Assembly (NCBI RefSeq): GCF_001677475.2
Contig: NZ_CP015229.1
Origin: Escherichia coli
GTDB taxonomy: Bacteria > Pseudomonadota > Gammaproteobacteria > Enterobacterales > Enterobacteriaceae
Length of the DNA stretch: 64,000 nt
Direction: 5' to 3' (one strand)
Shown: in pieces, positions 42,464 through 54,306 of the stretch
How positions within the stretch are numbered: the stretch's first letter is position 1
How the letters are laid out: each line of letters starts with the position of its first letter
Translations under genes and position numbers: made by a program
Notes under the pieces: model-generated
What the model saw: the letters and a program-made list of their open reading frames with translations, nothing else
Databases searched by the model: none
What the model was told of the DNA's origin: nothing

Positions 42464-43963
42464 GTGACGCTCAATACTTCTCAGGTCAGTTACTATATGA
42501 CTCAGCGTAAGAAAGGTATAACTCAGCATATCTCGGCCATGAAGGCTGGTATCTCAGTCCGTTCTGGTCGTCGGATCGAAAAAGGAGAGTGGGCAAAAAA
42601 CAGTGTTCGGCACTGGCGCACACGCAAAGATCCTCTGGAAGCTGTGTGGGACAGCATGCTTGTTCCTCTGTTGAAAGAGAGGCCGGCTCTGACACCAACA
42701 ACTCTACTGGAGATGCTACAGGATAAATATCCCGGCCAGTACCCCAACAGCCTTCGAAGAACAATGCAACGGCGGGTTCGCGAATGGAAACTACAGTATG
42801 GTACAGAGCAGGAGGTCATGTTCCGCCAGCAACATCAGCCCGGCCTGCGAGGCCTGTCGGACTTTACTGAACTGAAAGGTGTAGTTGTCACCATCGCCGG
42901 TAAGTTGTTGGCGCATAAGTTGTATCACTTCCGTCTGGAATGGAGCCACTGGAGCTGGATGCGGGTTGTTCTGGGTGGTGAGAGCTTCTCTGCTCTGGCT
43001 GAAGGCCTGCAGGAAGCCCTCGGACAACTGGGCGGAGTGCCGGTAGAACATAAAACGGACAGCCTGAGGGCAGCATGGAAACAACAGGGCGAAGATGGAC
43101 GCCGCGAGCTGACTGAGCGTTATGCTACTCTCTGTCAGCACTACGGAATGCAGGGCGTACACAATAATGCCGGTCGGGGCCACGAAAATGGCTCGGTTGA
43201 AAGTGCCCACGGACATCTGAAAAGGCGTATCTGTCAGGCGCTGATACTGCGGGGCAGTAACGACTTCAGCACCATAGAAGAATATCAGGCCTTCATCACT
43301 CAGCAGGTTATGCGGCACAACCGTAACAATCAGGATCTGGTCAAGGAAGAACGTCTTCATCTGAAACCGCTGCCGCTTCGTCGCAGTGCTGACTATGATG
43401 AGCTGACTGTGAGGGTTAGTCGCAGCAGTACCATCAATGTGAAGCACGTCGTCTACAGCGTACCTTCCCGGCTTGTAGGTCAACTGTTACGGGTCAGGTT
43501 ATGGGACGATCGTCTGAGCTGTTACGTTGGCAGCAGCGAGGTCATGAGCTGCCCTCGCGTCAGACCAGAAAAAGGGAAGACGCGGGCCCGTCGTATCGAC
43601 TTCCGACATGTGATCGACAGTCTGGCAAAAAAGCCCGGTGCGTTCTGCCATGCAACGCTGAGAAATGACATCCTGCCGGACGATGAATGGCGGAGGCTGT
43701 GGCGTCGCTTATGTAATCATCTGGAGCCCGATATGGCAGGAAGGCTGATGGTACATGCCCTGAAACTGGCTGCAGGATACGACGATATCTCAGTCGTGGC
43801 AAAAGGTATGGAGCAGATGCTGAATACCCCGGGAAACGTGGATCTGCACCGGCTGATGCGCTTCCTGGGTATAAAAGAAAAGGCGTTGCCGGTAGTCAAT
43901 GTGATACAGCATAACCTGAGCAGTTATGAGCAACTACTGCGTGGCAAGGGAGGTTCGCAGTGA
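42464..43963 (+). CDS. istA: IS21-family transposase IstA
   Basis: 499-aa ORF with N-terminal HTH and DDE-type core; followed by overlapping IstB. Confidence 0.8.
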   Translation: MTLNTSQVSYYMTQRKKGITQHISAMKAGISVRSGRRIEKGEWAKNSVRHWRTRKDPLEAVWDSMLVPLLKERPALTPTTLLEMLQDKYPGQYPNSLRRTMQRRVREWKLQYGTEQEVMFRQQHQPGLRGLSDFTELKGVVVTIAGKLLAHKLYHFRLEWSHWSWMRVVLGGESFSALAEGLQEALGQLGGVPVEHKTDSLRAAWKQQGEDGRRELTERYATLCQHYGMQGVHNNAGRGHENGSVESAHGHLKRRICQALILRGSNDFSTIEEYQAFITQQVMRHNRNNQDLVKEERLHLKPLPLRRSADYDELTVRVSRSSTINVKHVVYSVPSRLVGQLLRVRLWDDRLSCYVGSSEVMSCPRVRPEKGKTRARRIDFRHVIDSLAKKPGAFCHATLRNDILPDDEWRRLWRRLCNHLEPDMAGRLMVHALKLAAGYDDISVVAKGMEQMLNTPGNVDLHRLMRFLGIKEKALPVVNVIQHNLSSYEQLLRGKGGSQ

Positions 43964-44715
43964 GCAATATCCATCACCTTGAACATAGCCTGCGTAAACT
44001 ACGCCTGACACGAGTTGGAGCTGAATGGCACGCTCTGGAAAAACGAGCGCTGGCAGAAGGCTGGACACCATCGCGCTATCTTCTGACGCTATGCAATGAA
44101 GAACTCCTGTGGCGCGAGAGTGAAAAACTGCGTCGTTATAAAAAGGAGGCCCGGTTGCCAGTTGCCAAAACGCTGAGCGAATACGACTTCAGTCAGGTGC
44201 CGGAACTGAATGGAGCTCAGTTCCGGCAACTCTGTGAAACGACAGACTGGGTTGATGCAGGAGAAAACGTTCTGCTGTTCGGAGCCAGCGGGTTGGGGAA
44301 AAGCCATCTGGCGGCAGCGATCGTGGATGGCGTAGTAGGTCAGGGCTACCGGGCCCGGTTCTACAGCGCAGGAGAGCTGTTGCAGGAACTACGTAAAGCC
44401 AGAGCTCAGTTGAAACTGAATGAGCTGCTACTGAAACTGGATCGCTACCGGGTGATAGTGGTGGATGATCTTGGCTATGTCAAACGCGATAGTGCCGAAA
44501 CGGGTGTGCTGTTCGAGTTAATAGCGCATCGCTATGAACGTGGGAGCCTGGTGATAACCAGTAACCATCCGTTCAGCATGTGGGGCAGCATCTTCGTGGA
44601 TGAGACTATGGCGGTGGCTGCGGCAGACAGGCTGATCCATCACGGATATATGTTCGAACTGAAAGGGGAAAGCTACAGGAAAAAGACAGCGAAGGCAGTA
44701 ACAAGCGCGACTTGA
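43960..44715 (+). CDS. istB: IS21-family ATP-binding helper IstB
   Basis: Walker A (LLFGASGLGKSHLA), Walker B (VVDDLGYV) and C-terminal DRLIHHG motif. Confidence 0.88.
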   Translation: MSNIHHLEHSLRKLRLTRVGAEWHALEKRALAEGWTPSRYLLTLCNEELLWRESEKLRRYKKEARLPVAKTLSEYDFSQVPELNGAQFRQLCETTDWVDAGENVLLFGASGLGKSHLAAAIVDGVVGQGYRARFYSAGELLQELRKARAQLKLNELLLKLDRYRVIVVDDLGYVKRDSAETGVLFELIAHRYERGSLVITSNHPFSMWGSIFVDETMAVAAADRLIHHGYMFELKGESYRKKTAKAVTSAT

Positions 44716-44781
44716 TGTCGCCCTGAAGGGTGCGGCCAGTATAGTTGGCGCGAGTCGGCAAAACTAGTTGACGTCTAATAA

Positions 44782-46773
44782 CCGGGCGATGTCATTGAAA
44801 TCTGCGATGATGACTATGCCGGTATCAGCACCGGTGGTCGCGTGCTGGCGGTGAACAGCCAGACCCGGACGCTGACGCTCGACCGTGAAATCACGCTGCC
44901 ATCCTCCGGTACCACGCTGATAAGCCTGGTTGACGGAAGTGGTAATCCGGTCAGCGTGGAGGTTCAGTCCGTCACCGACGGACTTAAGGTGAAAGTGAAC
45001 CGGGTTCCTGACGGCGTTGCAGAATACAGCGTGTGGGGGCTGAAGCTGCCGACGCTGCGCCAGCGCCTGTTCCGCTGCGTGAGTATCCGTGAGAACGACG
45101 ACGGCACGTATGCCATCACTGCCGTGCAGCATGTACCGGAAAAAGAAGCCATCGTGGATAACGGGGCGCACTTTGACGGCGACCAGAGCGGCACGGTGAA
45201 TGGTGTCACGCCGCCAGCGGTGCAGCACCTGACCGCCGAAGTCACCGCAGACAGCGGGGAATATCAGGTGCTGGCGCGCTGGGACACGCCGAAGGTGGTG
45301 AAGGGCGTGAGCTTCCTGCTCCGTCTGACCGTAACAGCGGATGACGGCAGTGAGCGGCTGGTCAGCACGGCCCGGACGACGGAAACCACATACCGCTTCA
45401 CGCAACTGGCGCTGGGGAACTACAGGCTGACAGTCCGGGCGGTAAATGCGTGGGGGCAGCAGGGCGATCCGGCGTCGGTATCGTTCCGGATTGCCGCACC
45501 GGCAGCACCGTCGAGGATTGAGCTGACGCCGGGCTATTTTCAGATAACCGCCACGCCGCATCTTGCCGTTTATGACCCGACGGTACAGTTTGAGTTCTGG
45601 TTCTCGGAAAAGCGGATTACCGATATCAGGCAGGTTGAAACCACAGCCCGCTATCTTGGTACGGCGCTGTACTGGATAGCCGCCAGTATCAATATCAAAC
45701 CGGGCCATGATTATTACTTTTATATCCGCAGTGTGAACACCGTTGGCAAATCGGCATTCGTGGAGGGCGTCGGTCGGGCGAGCGATGATGCGGAAGGTTA
45801 CCTGGATTTTTTCAAAGGCAAGATAACCGAATCCCATCTCGGTAAAGAGCTGCTGGAAAAAGTTGATTTGACGGAGGATAACGCCAGCAGACTGGATGAG
45901 TTTTCGAAAGAGTGGAAGGACGCTAACGATAAATGGAATGCCATGTGGGGCGTCAAAATTGAGCAGACCAAAGACGGCAAACATTATGTCGCGGGTATTG
46001 GCCTCAGCATGGAGGACACGGAGGAAGGCAAGCTGAGCCAGTTTCTGGTTGCCGCTAACCGTATCGCGTTTATTGACCCGGCAAACGGGAATGAAACGCC
46101 GATGTTTGTGGCGCAGGGCAACCAGATATTCATGAACGACGTGTTCCTGAAGCGCCTGACAGCCCCCACCATTACCAGCGGTGGCAGTCCTCCGGTATTT
46201 TCCCTGACATCAGACGGAAAGCTGACCGCTAAAAATGCGGATATCAGTGGTAGTGTGAATGCGAACTCAGGAACGCTCAACAATGTCACGATTAACCAGA
46301 ACTGTACGATTAAGGGCATGCTGGAGGCGACTCAGGTCAGAGGTGACTTCGTTAAAGCTGTATCCAAATCATTTCCGAAACAGGCTGGTACGTGGGGTAA
46401 CACGGAAACACCAAACGGGACGGTTACAGTCACCATCAGCGATGATCATAACTTTGACCGTCAAATCATTATTCCGCCCATTATCTTTAACGGAATAGCG
46501 TATAGCGATCCGGGAAGTGGTAATAACCCGGGAGGTACAAGATACACGGGTTATGGTTTTGAAGTTCGCAAAAACGGTGTATTAATCGCATCCAGAGAAA
46601 CTAAAGGGGCCATTCCCGGTAGCTACAGTGCGGTTATTGATATGCCGAGTGGCAGGGGAAGCGTCACTCTGGAGTTTAAGGTTTTCCATAAAGGCAATCA
46701 GTGGGCAGGTAATATCACCGACTGTACGGTGATTGTGACCAAAAAAGCCGCTTCCGGCATCAGTATTCGTTGA
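44782..46773 (+). pseudogene. J: Tail tip/host-specificity protein J, 3' fragment
   Basis: Resumes in frame ([29 protein letters not shown]...) exactly as lambda J continues after ...HVPG. Confidence 0.9.
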
Positions 46774-47506: not shown

Positions 47507-50446
47507 ATGGCAGTAAAGATTTCAGGTGTACTGAAAGACGGCACAGGAAAACCGGTACAGAACTGCACAATCCAGCTGAAAGCAAAACGTAACAGCACCA
47601 CGGTGGTGGTGAACACGCTGGCCTCAGAAAATCCGGATGAAGCCGGGCGTTATAGCATGGACGTTGAGTACGGTCAGTACAGCGTTATTCTGTTGGTGGA
47701 AGGATGCCCGCCGTCACATGCCGGGACCATCACCGTGTATGAAGATTCCCGACCCGGTACGCTGAATGATTTTCTCGGTGCCATGACGGAGGATGATGCC
47801 CGTCCGGAGGCTCTGCGCCGTTTTGAACTGATGGTGGAAGAGGTGGCGCGTAACGCGTCCGCGGTGGCACAGAACACGGCAGCCGCGAAGAAGTCAGCCG
47901 GCGATGCCGGCACATCTGCCCGTGAGGCGGCAACCCATGCGACTGATGCTGCAGATTCAGCACGTGCAGCCAGCACGTCAGCCGGACAGGCCGCGACGTC
48001 AGCTCAGGAGGCTTTTTCCTGCGCAGGAACGGCATCAGCAAAAGCCTCTGAGGCATCAAAAAGTGCTGCCGCTGCAGAGTCCTCAAAAAGCGCGGCGGCC
48101 ACCAGTGCCGGTGCCGCGAAAACGTCTGAAACGAATGCTGCAGCGTCACAACAATCAGCAGCCACTTCTGCATCCACCGCGACCACGAAAGCGTCAGAAG
48201 CTGCCACCTCAGCCCGGGATGCGTCGGCTTCAAAAGAGGCGGCAAAATCATCAGAAACGAGCGCAGCCTCGAGCGCAAGTAGTTCCGCTTCCTCGGCAAC
48301 AGCGGCAGCAAATTCTGCGAAGGCGGCAAAAACGTCCGAGACGAACGCCAGGTCTTCTGAAACGGCAGCGGAACAGAGCGCCTCAGCTGCGGCAGGTTCA
48401 GAAACTACCGCTGCATCATCAGCCCGTGAGGCGTCAGTCAAAGCGGAGGAGGCTGCAGCCAGTGCCACTGCCGCCGGAAAATCGGCAGAAAGCGCCGCAT
48501 CATCCGCTTCAACAGCCACAACGAAGGCTGGCGAAGCCACTGAACAGGCCAGCGCAGCAGCGAGGTCAGCTTCCGCAGCGAAGACATCCGAAACGAACGC
48601 GAAAGCGTCGGAAACCAGCGCAGAATCCTCAAAAACGGCTGCCGCATCGTCCGCCAGTTCGGCGGCGTCATCGGCCTCATCGGCGTCTGCTTCAAAAGAT
48701 GAGGCGACCAGACAAGCGTCAGCAGCGAAGGGCAGCGCCACGACGGCATCCACGAAGGCAACAGAGGCTGCTGGCAGTGCGACGGCGGCAGCACAGAGCA
48801 AAAGTACGGCGGAATCCGCGGCAACGCGCGCCGAGACAGCGGCAAAACGGGCAGAGGATATTGCATCCGCCGTGGCGCTTGAGGATGCGAGCACGACGAA
48901 AAAGGGGATAGTACAGCTCAGCAGTGCGACCAACAGCACTTCCGAGTCACAGGCGGCAACGCCAAAGGCAGTAAAAGCAGCCAATGACAATGCTGAGAAA
49001 CGTCTGCAGAAAGATCAGAACGGTGCGGATATCCCTGGCAAAGACACCTTTACGAAAAATATTGGTGCCTGCCGTGCCTTCGGTGGGTCAGTAAGCACAA
49101 CAACAGGAAACTGGACGACTGCACAGTTTATCGAGTGGCTGGATTCTCAGGGAGCATTTAACCATCCATACTGGATGTGCAAGGGTTCCTGGTCTTATGG
49201 CAATAATAAAATCATTACTGATACTGGCTGCGGTAATATTCATCTCGCCGGAGCTGTCATTGAAGTAATGGGGATAAAGTCAGCGATGACGATCCGCATT
49301 ACCACTCCGACTACATCCAGCGGTGGCGGAACAACCAACGCCCAGTTTACCTATATTAATCACGGAACAGATTATTCACCTGGCTGGCGAAGGGACTATA
49401 ACTCCAGAAATAAGCCAACGGCATCAGAGATCGGGGCGCTACCGTCAGGTGGAACAGCAGTATCATCAGTTAATCTGGCTTCAAAAGGTCGGGTAGCCGC
49501 GCTGACAGACAATACGCAGGGGGCAGCAGGTCTTGAGTTATACGAGGTGTATAACAACGGATATCCAACAGCGTATGGAAATATCATTCACCTGAAAGGG
49601 ATGACAGCCGTTGGCGAAGGTGAGTTACTCATCGGCTGGAGTGGTACAAGCGGTGCTCATGCTCCGGCATTTATTCGTTCACGACGGGATACGACCGACG
49701 CAAACTGGTCGCCGTGGGCGCAGCTTTACACCTCGGCTCATCCTCCTGCAGAGTTTTATCCAGTCGGTGCACCAATCCCGTGGCCATCAGATACCGTTCC
49801 GTCTGGCTATGCCCTGATGCAGGGGCAGACTTTTGACAAATCTGCATACCCGAAACTTGCAGCGGCTTATCCGTCAGGCGTTATTCCTGATATGCGTGGC
49901 TGGACGATTAAGGGCAAGCCCGCCAGTGGTCGTGCCGTATTGTCTCAGGAACAGGACGGCATTAAATCGCACACCCACAGCGCCAGCGCATCCAGTACGG
50001 ATTTGGGGACGAAAACCACATCGTCGTTTGATTACGGCACTAAATCCACGAATAACACCGGTGCGCATACCCATAGTTTAAGTGGCAGCACGAATGCGGC
50101 TGGTAATCACAGCCATAGAGATGGCCGTCGATTTAACCCCAGTGTTTTTAAAGATACTTATCAATATGGTTATACAAGCTCAGGTCAAAATACCTGGGGG
50201 GTACAAGGCTCAGTAGGTATGTCTACGGGGTGGTTAGCTAATACCAGTACAGATGGTAATCATAGCCACTCACTGTCCGGTACAGCAGTATCTGCAGGTG
50301 CACACGCGCATACTGTCGGTATTGGTGCTCATACGCACTCCGTTGCGATAGGGTCACATGGACACACCATCACCGTTAACGCTGCTGGTAACGCGGAAAA
50401 CACCGTCAAAAACATCGCATTTAACTATATTGTGAGGCTTGCATGA
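47507..50446 (+). CDS. stf: Side tail fibre protein Stf (Ala/Ser-rich repeats; C-terminal HxH repeats)
   Basis: 979-aa ORF; long low-complexity central region; C-terminus [18 protein letters not shown]...[15 protein letters not shown] typical of lambda-type Stf. Confidence 0.85.
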
Positions 50447-51345
50447 TTACGCTCATTCTTTCTGCACCAGTAACAGAAATGGCTGAAGCATTTAAGCGGG
50501 TATTCGCAAATGCAGATAATGTGAATATTGTCGGAAAGCCATTTGAAACAATCAGGGAATTTGACTGCATGGTAAGTGCGGCAAACAGTTTCGGCCTGAT
50601 GGATGGCGGTGTTGATGCCGCCATTACCGCATTCTTCGGTACTCAGTTACAGTCCCGCGTTCAGAATCATATTCTTCGTGAATATCTCGGCGAGCAGCCT
50701 GTAGGTTCTGCATTTGTTATTGAAACGGGGCATAATCATCATCCCTGGCTGGTACATGCGCCAACAATGCGTGTTCCGCTGACAATTGACGGAACAGACG
50801 CTGTATATAACGCAACCTGGGCCGCTCTGCTTGCCATCTTTCAGCACAATAAACACGCAACGACAGACAGGAAAATAAAAACGGTGGTATTCCCTGCAAT
50901 GGGAGCCGGATGTGGTCAGGTGCCGTTTGAAAGTGTTGCCCGGCAGATGAAGCAGGCATGGGATAACTTTAATAAAAAAACAGAATCAATTAACTGGGAA
51001 TACGCACAATCCCGCCAGTCGGCAGTATTTGGCACATATGCATACTGTCCGGGTAATTCTGTTTGCCGTTATGCGGATACTAAATATATTGGATGCGGCG
51101 ATTATCGGACGTATTGCTCACGTTCCGGGCAGGTCTGTATTAACCCTGAACATCAGGCTGATGATGTACTGATACAACATCAGGCTAATAACCGGTTTCG
51201 CCCTGGTTCGCATATACACCGGATTAATCCAGAAAATCCCGTAGGTAATGTCATCTCTGGCGCACATAGCCACGGAAGTAGCATCGTTATTGGTGCTCAC
51301 ACCCATACGCTCAATAAACAATATTCTGTCTCTGATATTAAGTAG
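50443..51345 (+). CDS. Macro-domain (ADP-ribose binding/hydrolase-like) protein with tail-fibre-like His-repeat C-terminus, inserted between stf and tfa
   Basis: ATGA overlap with stf stop; macro motifs [18 protein letters not shown] and [14 protein letters not shown]; C-terminal [18 protein letters not shown] echoes the Stf C-terminus; stop 8 nt before tfa ATG. Confidence 0.6.
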
Positions 51346-51353
51346 AGGTGAAC

Positions 51354-51929
51354 ATGGATTTCAGAATGAGTGAACAACCACGGACCATAACAATTTATAA
51401 TCTGCTGGCCGGAACTAATGAATTTATTGGTGAAGGTGATGCATATATTCCGCCTCATACAGGTCTGCCAGCAAACAGTACCGATATTGCACCGCCAGAT
51501 ATTCCGGCTGGCTTTGTGGCTGTTTTCAACAGTGATGAGGCATCGTGGCATCTCGTTGAAGACCATCGGGGTAAAACCGTCTATGACGTGGCTTCCGGCG
51601 ACGCGTTATTTATTTCTGAACTTGGCCCATTACCGGAAAATGTCACTTGGTTATCCCCGGAAGGGGAGTTTCAGAAGTGGAACGGCACAGCCTGGGTGAA
51701 GGATACGGAAGCAGAAAAACTGTTCCGGATCCGGGAGGCGGAAGAAACAAAAAACAACCTGATGCAGGTAGCCAGTGAGCATATTGCGCCGCTTCAGGAT
51801 GCTGCAGATCTGGAAATTGCAACGGAGGAAGAAATCTCGTTGCTGGAAGCATGGAAAAAGTATCGGGTATTGCTGAACCGTGTTGATACGTCAACTGCAC
51901 AGGATATTGAATGGCCAGCACTGCCGTAG
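51354..51929 (+). CDS. tfa: Tail fibre assembly protein Tfa
   Basis: [41 protein letters not shown]... matches recalled lambda Tfa; SD GAGGTG upstream. Confidence 0.9.
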
Positions 51930-52026
51930 GGTAAAACATATAAATTCTATAATTAGATGTATCTTTCCATTTACGGCAAGGAAGGGGGCTTGGAAGACGT
52001 AAAGCATCTCACACCGAGATTATTTT

Positions 52027-52617
52027 TTATATGTCAGGTGTCTGAAGTTTTGCTTTGGCTCTTAAAATGGTTTGCCGCGAGGTTTTGAATTCCCGGGCAA
52101 TGGCACTTATACTTACACCTGACTTAATTCGTTCGAATACCACCTGTTTCTGTTCTTCATTTAACACAGGTGGTCGACCAAAACGTTTCCCTGCGCCCCG
52201 GGCTCTTACTATCCCGGAATGAGTGCGTTCAAGTAAAAGGTCTCGTTCAAATTCAGCGACTGCTGAAATTACTTGCATCATCATTTTTCCTGTTGGACTG
52301 GTCAGGTCAATGCCCCCCAATGCTAAGCAATGCACTCTGATACCTGTTTCGGTCAGTTGTTCCACTGTTTTCCTGATATCCATTGCATTACAACCAAGGC
52401 GATCCAGTTTTGTCACAATCAATTGATCACCACATTTCAGGCGAGCAAGCAACCGGTTAAAACCAGGACGCTCACTGGTTGCTGCTGAGCCGCTAATGTG
52501 TTCTTCGATTATTTGCTGAGGTTTGATTTTAAAACCTGCACTTTCGATTTCCCGGCGTTGATTTTCGGGGGTCTGATCCAGCGTTGATATCCGACAGTAA
52601 GCAAAAATTCGAGACAT
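52027..52617 (-). CDS. pin: Serine recombinase / DNA invertase (Pin/Hin/Gin family)
   Basis: 196-aa [18 protein letters not shown]... with catalytic Ser motif and C-terminal HTH; adjacent to tfa as in e14/Rac/Qin. Confidence 0.88.
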
Positions 52618-52996
52618 AGTGAGACTCTATACGAAATTGGTGTACATATCATAATGCATATCCAAAAATTATTTCGCTTATTATTGTACATATTTGTATG
52701 TATACGTTCGAAAATAAACGAATTCGGATGCAGTCCCGTAATTTTGGTGTAACCAAAAATCGATTTTTTGAAAAATGGCTTTAACTCGGTTTGTTTTTCG
52801 AACTCCGGGCGGACTCGAGGAAGACGAATAATAGTGTTGTATGTTATTTTAACCAGATTTTAAGTTGTTTGGTCGTGGAAAAGTGGAGCAAAATGTTGTT
52901 AAAGTGGAAAAATGGTAAAAAAAGTAGGTTGTTGCGGAATAACGTAGTTGTTGATATTTTTTTAATGCATTGAAAAATTATTTTTCAGGGGGGGTA

Positions 52997-54171: not shown

Positions 54172-54286
54172 TGTACAAATGTTCTTTGGCTACAAATACA
54201 CCTACTGATCATGTTCTGCTATGCTCTGATACCTCCAAAATGTACAATCAGCGGCATGAATTTTTCTTTGTACATATGATTGTACA
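54172..54286. promoter_or_regulatory. TGTACA-containing repeats near attR (ATGTACAAA, TTGTACATA x2); candidate arm-type sites overlapping the phage-borne prfC promoter region
   Basis: Same 9-mers as at 3362..3418 near attL. Confidence 0.4.
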
Positions 54287-54306
54287 TAATCAAAGAGACA
54301 ACAATT

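Follow-up and report, generated by a model that had tools for sequence, protein, structure and literature searches.

The pin gene examined here, in a 64,000-nucleotide stretch of Escherichia coli DNA (the window), is very probably the resolvase gene (tnpR) of a fossil, non-autonomous mini-transposon of the Tn3 family, about 0.84 kb long and organised as IR-res-tnpR-IR, and has no role in a tail-fibre switch. The gene as such is ordinary and already known: it is pinR/pinQ, the orphan recombinase of common lambdoid prophages. Its fossil Tn3-family origin, and the lineage-specific loss of both site I and the arginine equivalent to R71, seem not to have been reported in the searchable literature.

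The history that best fits the data would run as follows. In an ancestral lambdoid phage, a single transposition would have placed the mini-transposon between tfa and ydfK and produced a 5-bp AGGAA duplication; the element would since have travelled with the stf-tfa-pin-ydfK module, which is found in Rac, in Qin, in the prophage next to prfC and in viable phages, 2H10 and mEp460 among them. The closeness of pin to tfa would mark where the transposon inserted and, because the gene would never have been part of a tail-fibre switch, no local invertible segment is to be expected. Both terminal repeats and res subsite I, on which movement and recombination depend in cis, have decayed, while the promoter region with subsites II and III is better preserved; the catalytic arginine (R71 in Tn3) has given way to cysteine.

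The window contains a lambdoid prophage, bordered at its right end by prfC and osmY; the features of the pin locus are collected in Table 1. The serine recombinase encoded by pin is 196 aa long and matches the Pfam families Resolvase (E 4.6e-36) and HTH_7 (E 3.8e-11). Upstream of it, the plus strand carries gpJ (interrupted by IS21), lom, stf, a macro-domain ORF and tfa; beyond it, the minus strand carries ydfK and then a DinI-like gene, with ynaM by the annotation of the closest genome, M114. The first-pass annotation had described the gene as adjoining tfa in the manner of e14, Mu and P1, with only plus-strand genes between stf and pin. The latter point is correct, the macro-domain ORF and tfa being the sole genes in that interval. 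As for the former, the adjacency stands (97 bp separate pin from the tfa stop), but the orientation does not: pin converges on tfa, whereas pinE of e14 begins beside pixR and points away from the invertible segment. The likeness to those layouts is superficial. The order stf-tfa-pin(-)-ydfK is identical in each related locus inspected (Rac, M114, Z1323MEC0002 and GCA_910593615), and K-12 Rac reads stfR-tfaR-pinR(-)-ynaE-ynaM.

Table 1. Features of the pin locus, numbered from the first nucleotide of the window, with the identity of each segment to the pS84-1 plasmid element.
Feature	Position	Strand	Basis or score	Identity to pS84-1
stf	47507-50446	+		
Macro-domain ORF	50443-51345	+	Macro domain, E 7.7e-19	
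tfa	51348-51929	+	Caudo_TAP, E 3.7e-43	
Putative target-site duplication, left copy, AGGAA	51979-51983	.	abuts outer end of degenerate terminal repeat	
Degenerate terminal inverted repeat of 38-bp type, tnpR side	51984-52018	-	outer GGGG at 51984; 22/31 core match	71%
Gap after stop codon, 8 nt			same gap length	7/8
pin, pinR/pinQ-type small serine recombinase gene, by descent probably Tn3-family tnpR	52027-52617	-	Pfam and identity	83% (coding sequence)
Codon TGT, Cys76, at position of catalytic Arg71 of Tn3/gamma-delta resolvase	52390-52392	-	ungapped motif alignment	
res subsite III, beside gene	52628-52648	-	19.2 bits; family minimum 22.1; shuffles 5.3 to 17.5	90%
Probable -10 box, TATGAT (TATAAT in family)	52648-52653	-	homology: place of TATAAT between subsites II and III in 72 regions	91% (-10 box segment)
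res subsite II (32 bp)	52659-52690	-	27.4 bits; family median 40.6; shuffles -2.2 to 21.0	69%
res subsite I, eroded, presumed crossover site	52705-52730	-	3.9 bits; family minimum 17.2, median 36.2; shuffles 3.1-12.6	62% (16/26)
Degenerate terminal inverted repeat, res side	52780-52817	+	reverse complement CGAGTCCGCCCGGAGTTCGAAAAACAAACCGAGTTAAA; 26/38 against left repeat of pS84-1, collinear place	68%
Putative target-site duplication, right copy, AGGAA	52818-52822	.	abuts outer end of res-side repeat	

Several other features of this prophage were recorded. The macro-domain ORF encodes 300 aa, overlaps the stf stop codon and has its Macro domain at residues 44-169; its C-terminal tail is cysteine-rich, with GAHxH histidine-box repeats resembling those at the tip of Stf. 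The 4.3-kb region that includes this ORF is covered at 80% or more in just 15 of 5426 genomes, and the ORF is missing from many otherwise near-identical prophages. The tail-tip gene gpJ is split by an IS21-family element (about 43960-44760, with an IstB-like ORF at 43960-44715 and a gpJ fragment at 44842-46773); since gpJ is intact, at 3.4 kb, in M114, the prophage of the window is probably tail-defective. The exact IS21 insertion was found in none of the genomes of the E. coli collection. Just upstream of prfC, at the junction of prophage and chromosome, TTGTACATAT occurs twice in tandem (54268-54288). The same 10-mer is present in res site II; the tandem may belong to the attachment site, or its presence there may be fortuitous.

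What kind of recombinase does pin encode? The protein of the window is identical to K-12 PinR at 195 of 196 residues (99%). PinR shares 37% identity with PinE, 36% with Gin and 32% with gamma-delta resolvase, whereas PinE and Gin share 78% with each other; gamma-delta resolvase in turn has 36-37% identity to PinE and Gin, and PinR is no closer to these two invertases than gamma-delta resolvase is. Much higher values are found elsewhere: 84% to a homologue on plasmid pS84-1 and 73% to a homologue beside a Tn3-type TnpA. In all, homologues occur on 1858 plasmid records with identities of up to 84%, and 1634 of these records fall at 60-90%. A scan of one genome per species added 79 loci at 62-80% identity and one E. 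coli PinR copy at 98%, distributed over Gammaproteobacteria, Betaproteobacteria, Nitrospirae, Melainabacteria and Chloroflexi, often with several loci per genome. Directly beside the homologue, 24 of these 80 loci have an ORF of ∼980 aa, in three different arrangements, and all three of the neighbouring ORFs tested matched DDE_Tnp_Tn3 (E 1e-129 to 1e-149) and DUF4158. Repeats of 38 bp, with the consensus GGGGTCCGCTTGGAAAACGGAAAATATCCTACGCTAAG, delimit many of these units. As judged from these relationships, PinR is a member of a clade of Tn3-family transposon resolvases (62-84% identity) and not an invertase of the Pin/Gin/Hin type, so that the initial label of Pin-family invertase does not hold. 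The closest Tn3-family relative or parent is probably the Tn5403 group; one paper places pinR beside Tn5403 in an annotation only, which reads “Tn5403-pinR”. Transposons of this family appear to insert into each other: at two loci (L039, 5962-5999, and L076, 5253-5290), the res or tnpR of one copy harbours a 38-bp terminal repeat of the same type that belongs to another.

The gene is also widespread. Of 5426 complete E. coli genomes, 2752 carry pin and its upstream region with a coverage of at least 80%, and the whole 844-bp unit occurs in 11 sequenced phages of Escherichia, among them 2H10, mEp460_ev081 and Tritos. The convergent orientation of pin and tfa is common to all of these. No defence-system model of PADLOC matches the protein. 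A 42-kb E. coli record filed as a plasmid (NZ_CP141086.1) carries a PinR that is 99.5% identical to that of the window, and may be a phage-plasmid, or else a lambdoid prophage that was excised or misassigned.

Another question is how the gene came to lie beside tfa. In the tnpR-side repeat, 22 of the 31 core positions that follow the outer GGGG agree with the family consensus, and even 21 of 31 was reached by none of 20000 shuffled spacers. The AGGAA flanks and the terminal repeats are kept in Rac and in all other prophage copies examined. Duplications of 5 bp are typical of Tn3-family insertions (PMC5142620), and the one common to the prophage copies indicates a single ancestral transposition. 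A further line of evidence comes from plasmid pS84-1, where the gene and its res are enclosed by two terminal repeats of the family type in a unit of about 850 bp; at least 80% of this element is held by 138 plasmid records. The window is collinear with it from end to end, and the identities of the single segments are given in Table 1. An empty site, i.e., contiguous tfa and ydfK without the element, was found in none of 5426 E. coli genomes or 50697 phage records, so that the insertion is deduced from the repeats, the duplication and the collinearity only. Around the copy of pS84-1 itself there is no matching 5-bp duplication. In that plasmid, the tnpR-side repeat is bordered at its outer end by the nine nucleotides AAGGAAGAC (L029, 5638-5646). 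The same nine nucleotides form the reconstructed pre-insertion target in the window (51977-51983 plus 52823-52825), where they adjoin the other repeat; this agreement may be due to chance or to a shared history.

Upstream of the gene, the alignment of 72 distinct regions from the family revealed, in the ∼115 bp before the ATG, three dyad subsites and a TATAAT box. In the order toward the gene, these are a 26-bp dyad site, a 32-bp dyad site, the near-invariant TATAAT and a third site beside the gene, an arrangement that, as read from the alignment, is the site I/II/III organisation of a Tn3-type res. The distal site is perfectly dyad, TGTCCGAAACCG-NN-CGGTTTCGGACA, with a central dinucleotide that differs between elements, and by its position is presumed to be the crossover site. 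The family half-site is TGTCCGAAA, which we take to resemble the site I half-site of gamma-delta. Matrices were built from the same alignment, and the scores were read against the maxima of shuffled windows. Subsites II and III of the window stand above their shuffles, and the next best match to the site II matrix scores 2.8 bits; subsite I, in contrast, lies within the chance range, and the family matrix found no other site I in the 64 kb. The same eroded site I is present in every phage-borne copy examined, including a second phage allele with 84-85% protein identity, while in the plasmid homologue at the same protein distance site I scores 40.3 bits. A generic promoter scan did not call a pin promoter, the -10 box being assigned by homology only. 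In K-12 Rac, sites II and III have fallen to 11.9 and 14.0 bits, so that autoregulation may also be disappearing.

A second loss concerns the active site. The stretch KLDRLGCN aligns without gaps with KLDRLGRD of gamma-delta resolvase and KLDRLGRS of Gin, which places a cysteine where these proteins have arginine. Among the 120 closest homologue clusters, 112 have Arg, five have Cys and three do not have the LDR-x-G motif; the five Cys clusters are exactly those borne by E. coli phages. Likewise, Arg is found at 79 of the 80 genomic loci, the single Cys being that of the E. coli PinR copy. In Tn3 resolvase, R71A and R71K gave no detectable recombination and cleaved about 1000-fold more slowly, with binding to site I kept (PMC2794168), and a comparable effect in the protein of the window is likely by extrapolation from that enzyme. 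With regard to the rest of the catalytic set (Y6, R8, S10, D36, R68 and R71 in Tn3 numbering), Y7, R9, S11 and R73 are present and the set is incomplete: E39 replaces D36 across the whole family, whereas C76 replaces R71 only in the phage-borne lineage.

These losses contrast with the state of the rest of the gene. For the two phage alleles compared with each other, dN/dS is 0.33-0.40, and for phage against plasmid copies it is 0.15-0.19; pin is still under purifying selection, but relaxed. The HTH region is identical to that of pS84-1 at 35 of 43 positions, with the RQTILR core in the recognition helix. Mosaic alleles were also encountered, as in L113 (6840-7591; GCA_910593615, the same prfC-adjacent prophage) and in proteins P0004-P0008: they follow the plasmid type in site III, in half of site II and in the 5' part of the gene, which has Arg76, and the prophage type in the 3' end of the gene and in the eroded site I. 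They look like products of gene conversion between plasmid-borne tnpR and prophage pin, which would make them natural “revertants” at residue 76.

Could the protein nevertheless be a working phage resolvase that acts on its own diverged res, for example in the resolution of phage dimers or in deletion between prophage copies? The gene is intact and under purifying selection, viable phages carry it, and subsites II and III are recognisable. However, site I is in the chance range, the catalytic arginine is lost, and the site occurs only once in the window. Co-evolution of protein and site is unlikely, as the HTH is conserved between PinR and homologues acting on the canonical site, and no rearrangements of Rac or Qin were seen across genomes by Kirigo et al. 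(PMC12529663). We consider such a function very unlikely.

The first-pass annotation had also stated that no hix/gix-like crossover sites and no inverted alternative fibre cassette could be found, and both statements were borne out by dedicated searches of the window. The hix consensus gave no match with up to three mismatches, and the core AAACCNNGGTTT with up to two mismatches gave 29 matches against 31 expected. A weight matrix made from genuine hix, gix and pix half-sites, including the e14 pix sites taken from MG1655, reached a maximum of 11.8 bits in the window, compared with 28-33 for real sites and 8-16 for shuffles. Inverted repeats were at chance level both locally and window-wide, with just three chance-level pairs of 24 nt or more, and the region upstream of pin has no second copy in the window. 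By tblastn over all 64 kb, no alternative fibre C-terminus or tfa cassette was found in opposite orientation; Tfa, the N- and C-termini of Stf and the C-terminus of the macro-domain ORF each have one copy, on the plus strand. The best hix-like match, at 11.8 bits inside the shuffle range, is the near-palindrome TAACCAAAAATCGATTTTTTGAAAAA at 52750-52775. Within the mini-element it falls between site I and the repeat on the res side; pS84-1 has a different sequence at the homologous place.

Two readings that keep pin in a local inversion system can be weighed against these results. In one, inversion takes place at crossover sites too divergent to be recognised. The absence of recognisable sites is, taken alone, weak evidence against it, but no inverted repeat of at least 24 nt goes beyond the three chance-level pairs in the window, the upstream region of pin has no partner, and the order stf-tfa-pin(-)-ydfK is unchanged in Rac, M114, Z1323MEC0002 and GCA_910593615; the probability left to this reading is minimal. 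In the other, pin is the orphan of a true Pin/Gin-type fibre switch whose invertible stf/tfa cassette was lost. The adjacency to tfa and the annotation of pin as a DNA invertase in public records speak for such an origin. Against it, the protein falls outside the invertase clade; pin converges on tfa, so that a crossover site upstream of the gene would lie on the side away from the fibre genes; the upstream region is homologous to a transposon res and not to pix or gix; and the terminal repeats and the 5-bp duplication bound the unit, leaving the fibre genes outside. This reading is close to refuted and we hold it to be extremely improbable. “Remnant”, the word first proposed for the gene, is a fair one, but the remnant would be that of a small transposon and not that of a fibre-switching system.

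It had also been suggested that the invertase acts elsewhere, and this suggestion has found published support. Kirigo et al. (NAR 2025, PMC12529663; preprint 10.1101/2025.03.28.646004) reported that PinQ, and by equivalence PinR, inverts in trans the 1797-bp P segment of prophage e14, giving a chimeric fibre protein that blocks the adsorption of phage T2. Are PinR and PinQ, then, active trans-acting invertases whose real substrate is this 1.8-kb segment? T2 survivors that overproduced PinQ carried the inverted segment; by qPCR, 88% of the segments were inverted with PinQ and 26-30% without it, with no phage needed; and the effect was gone after deletion of stfP, stfE or e14 (PMC12529663). The protein of the window is 99% identical to PinR, and the effect of PinQ argues for some recombination-related activity.

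Other data point the opposite way. In the same study, a pinE mutant was locked in one orientation despite intact pinQ and pinR, no in vitro assay was reported, and neither the paper (PMC12529663) nor its preprint was found to contain an active-site mutant. The residue equivalent to R71 is cysteine, no pix half-site exceeds 3.6 of 20 bits when scored with the half-site matrix of the PinR family, and the e14 region has no PinR-type subsite (best scores -3.7, -0.3 and 0.8 bits). By our own reasoning, a reversible invertase should push the mixture toward roughly 50:50, as PinE did (49%), and not to 88%. Moreover, 170 of 5426 genomes cover at least 80% of e14 P with pinE, compared with 2752 for pinR. 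The figure of 170 is too low, since matches to inverted copies are broken up; the e14 target is far rarer than pinR and cannot explain why pin is retained. Direct catalysis of the e14 inversion by PinR or PinQ is doubtful on these grounds, and we regard the reading of PinR and PinQ as active invertases of the P segment as unlikely. Kirigo et al. further found no inversions or rearrangements within Rac or Qin across public genomes (PMC12529663), in agreement with the lack of a local substrate.

If pin descends from a transposon resolvase, as we favour, why has it been maintained? The parts serving recombination and transposition have decayed, and preservation is better in the reading frame, in the HTH and in the sites near the promoter, a pattern which suggests that the protein is kept for DNA binding rather than for catalysis. 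A PinR-type protein would still bind DNA of the TGT(A/C)CGAAA type and would probably repress its own promoter; it could also bind the res of related plasmid-borne transposons, and would be at best a very poor recombinase. We tentatively extend this proposal, as a possibility held with less than even confidence, to PinR and PinQ in about half of E. coli genomes: they would be domesticated, crippled resolvases acting by DNA binding only, and the reported inversion of e14 P would be indirect. Their roles might then be the repression of their own promoter or the binding of res in incoming Tn5403-like transposons, and PinR could even poison the 84%-identical resolvase that such transposons bring in. 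If this is the case, the PinQ-driven inversion of e14 P works via PinE or via selection, and not by catalysis by PinQ.

A resolvase origin would have several consequences. The label “DNA invertase”, carried by thousands of E. coli prophages and several sequenced phages, would name the wrong family, and the nearness of the gene to the tail-fibre genes would be an accident of where a transposon landed. The change from Arg to Cys and the lost crossover site bear on the recent claim of a recombinase-based anti-phage switch, and the natural mosaic alleles that have regained Arg76 are ready material for comparison.

How does this element compare with known systems? With Hin, Gin, Cin and PinE it shares a small serine recombinase, a C-terminal HTH and a location beside phage tail-fibre genes. 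It differs from them in protein identity (36-37%, against 78% within the group), in the opposite orientation relative to the fibre genes, and in having neither 26-bp crossover sites nor an invertible segment. Its similarity to TnpR/res of Tn3 and gamma-delta extends to the fold and domains of the protein, a res directly upstream of the gene and overlapping its promoter (with three subsites in the family, of which II and III are recognisable in the window), close homologues paired with DDE_Tnp_Tn3, 38-bp terminal repeats starting with GGGG, and the 5-bp duplication; in contrast to these transposons, it has no tnpA, its site I and terminal repeats are eroded, and cysteine stands at the R71 equivalent. 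TIMEs are likewise non-autonomous derivatives of the Tn3 family that need a transposase in trans (PMC4133298); abstracts describe them as MITEs, i.e., miniature elements, while the element of the window carries a resolvase gene and its res. The element of pS84-1, also found in plasmids of the pAPEC-O1 type, is collinear with that of the window from end to end, down to the same 8-nt gap between stop codon and repeat, but its subsites are canonical (40.3, 40.3 and 27.7 bits), its right repeat is near-perfect and its residue 76 is Arg. Finally, PinR (Rac) and PinQ (Qin) of K-12 have the same neighbourhood, stf-tfa-pin(-)-ynaE/ydfK-ynaM, with the same flanks, terminal repeats and AGGAA duplication; the copy of the window differs from them by sitting in a prfC-adjacent prophage, with an extra macro-domain ORF between stf and tfa, and its res is less decayed than that of Rac (27.4 against 11.9 bits for site II, and 19.2 against 14.0 for site III).
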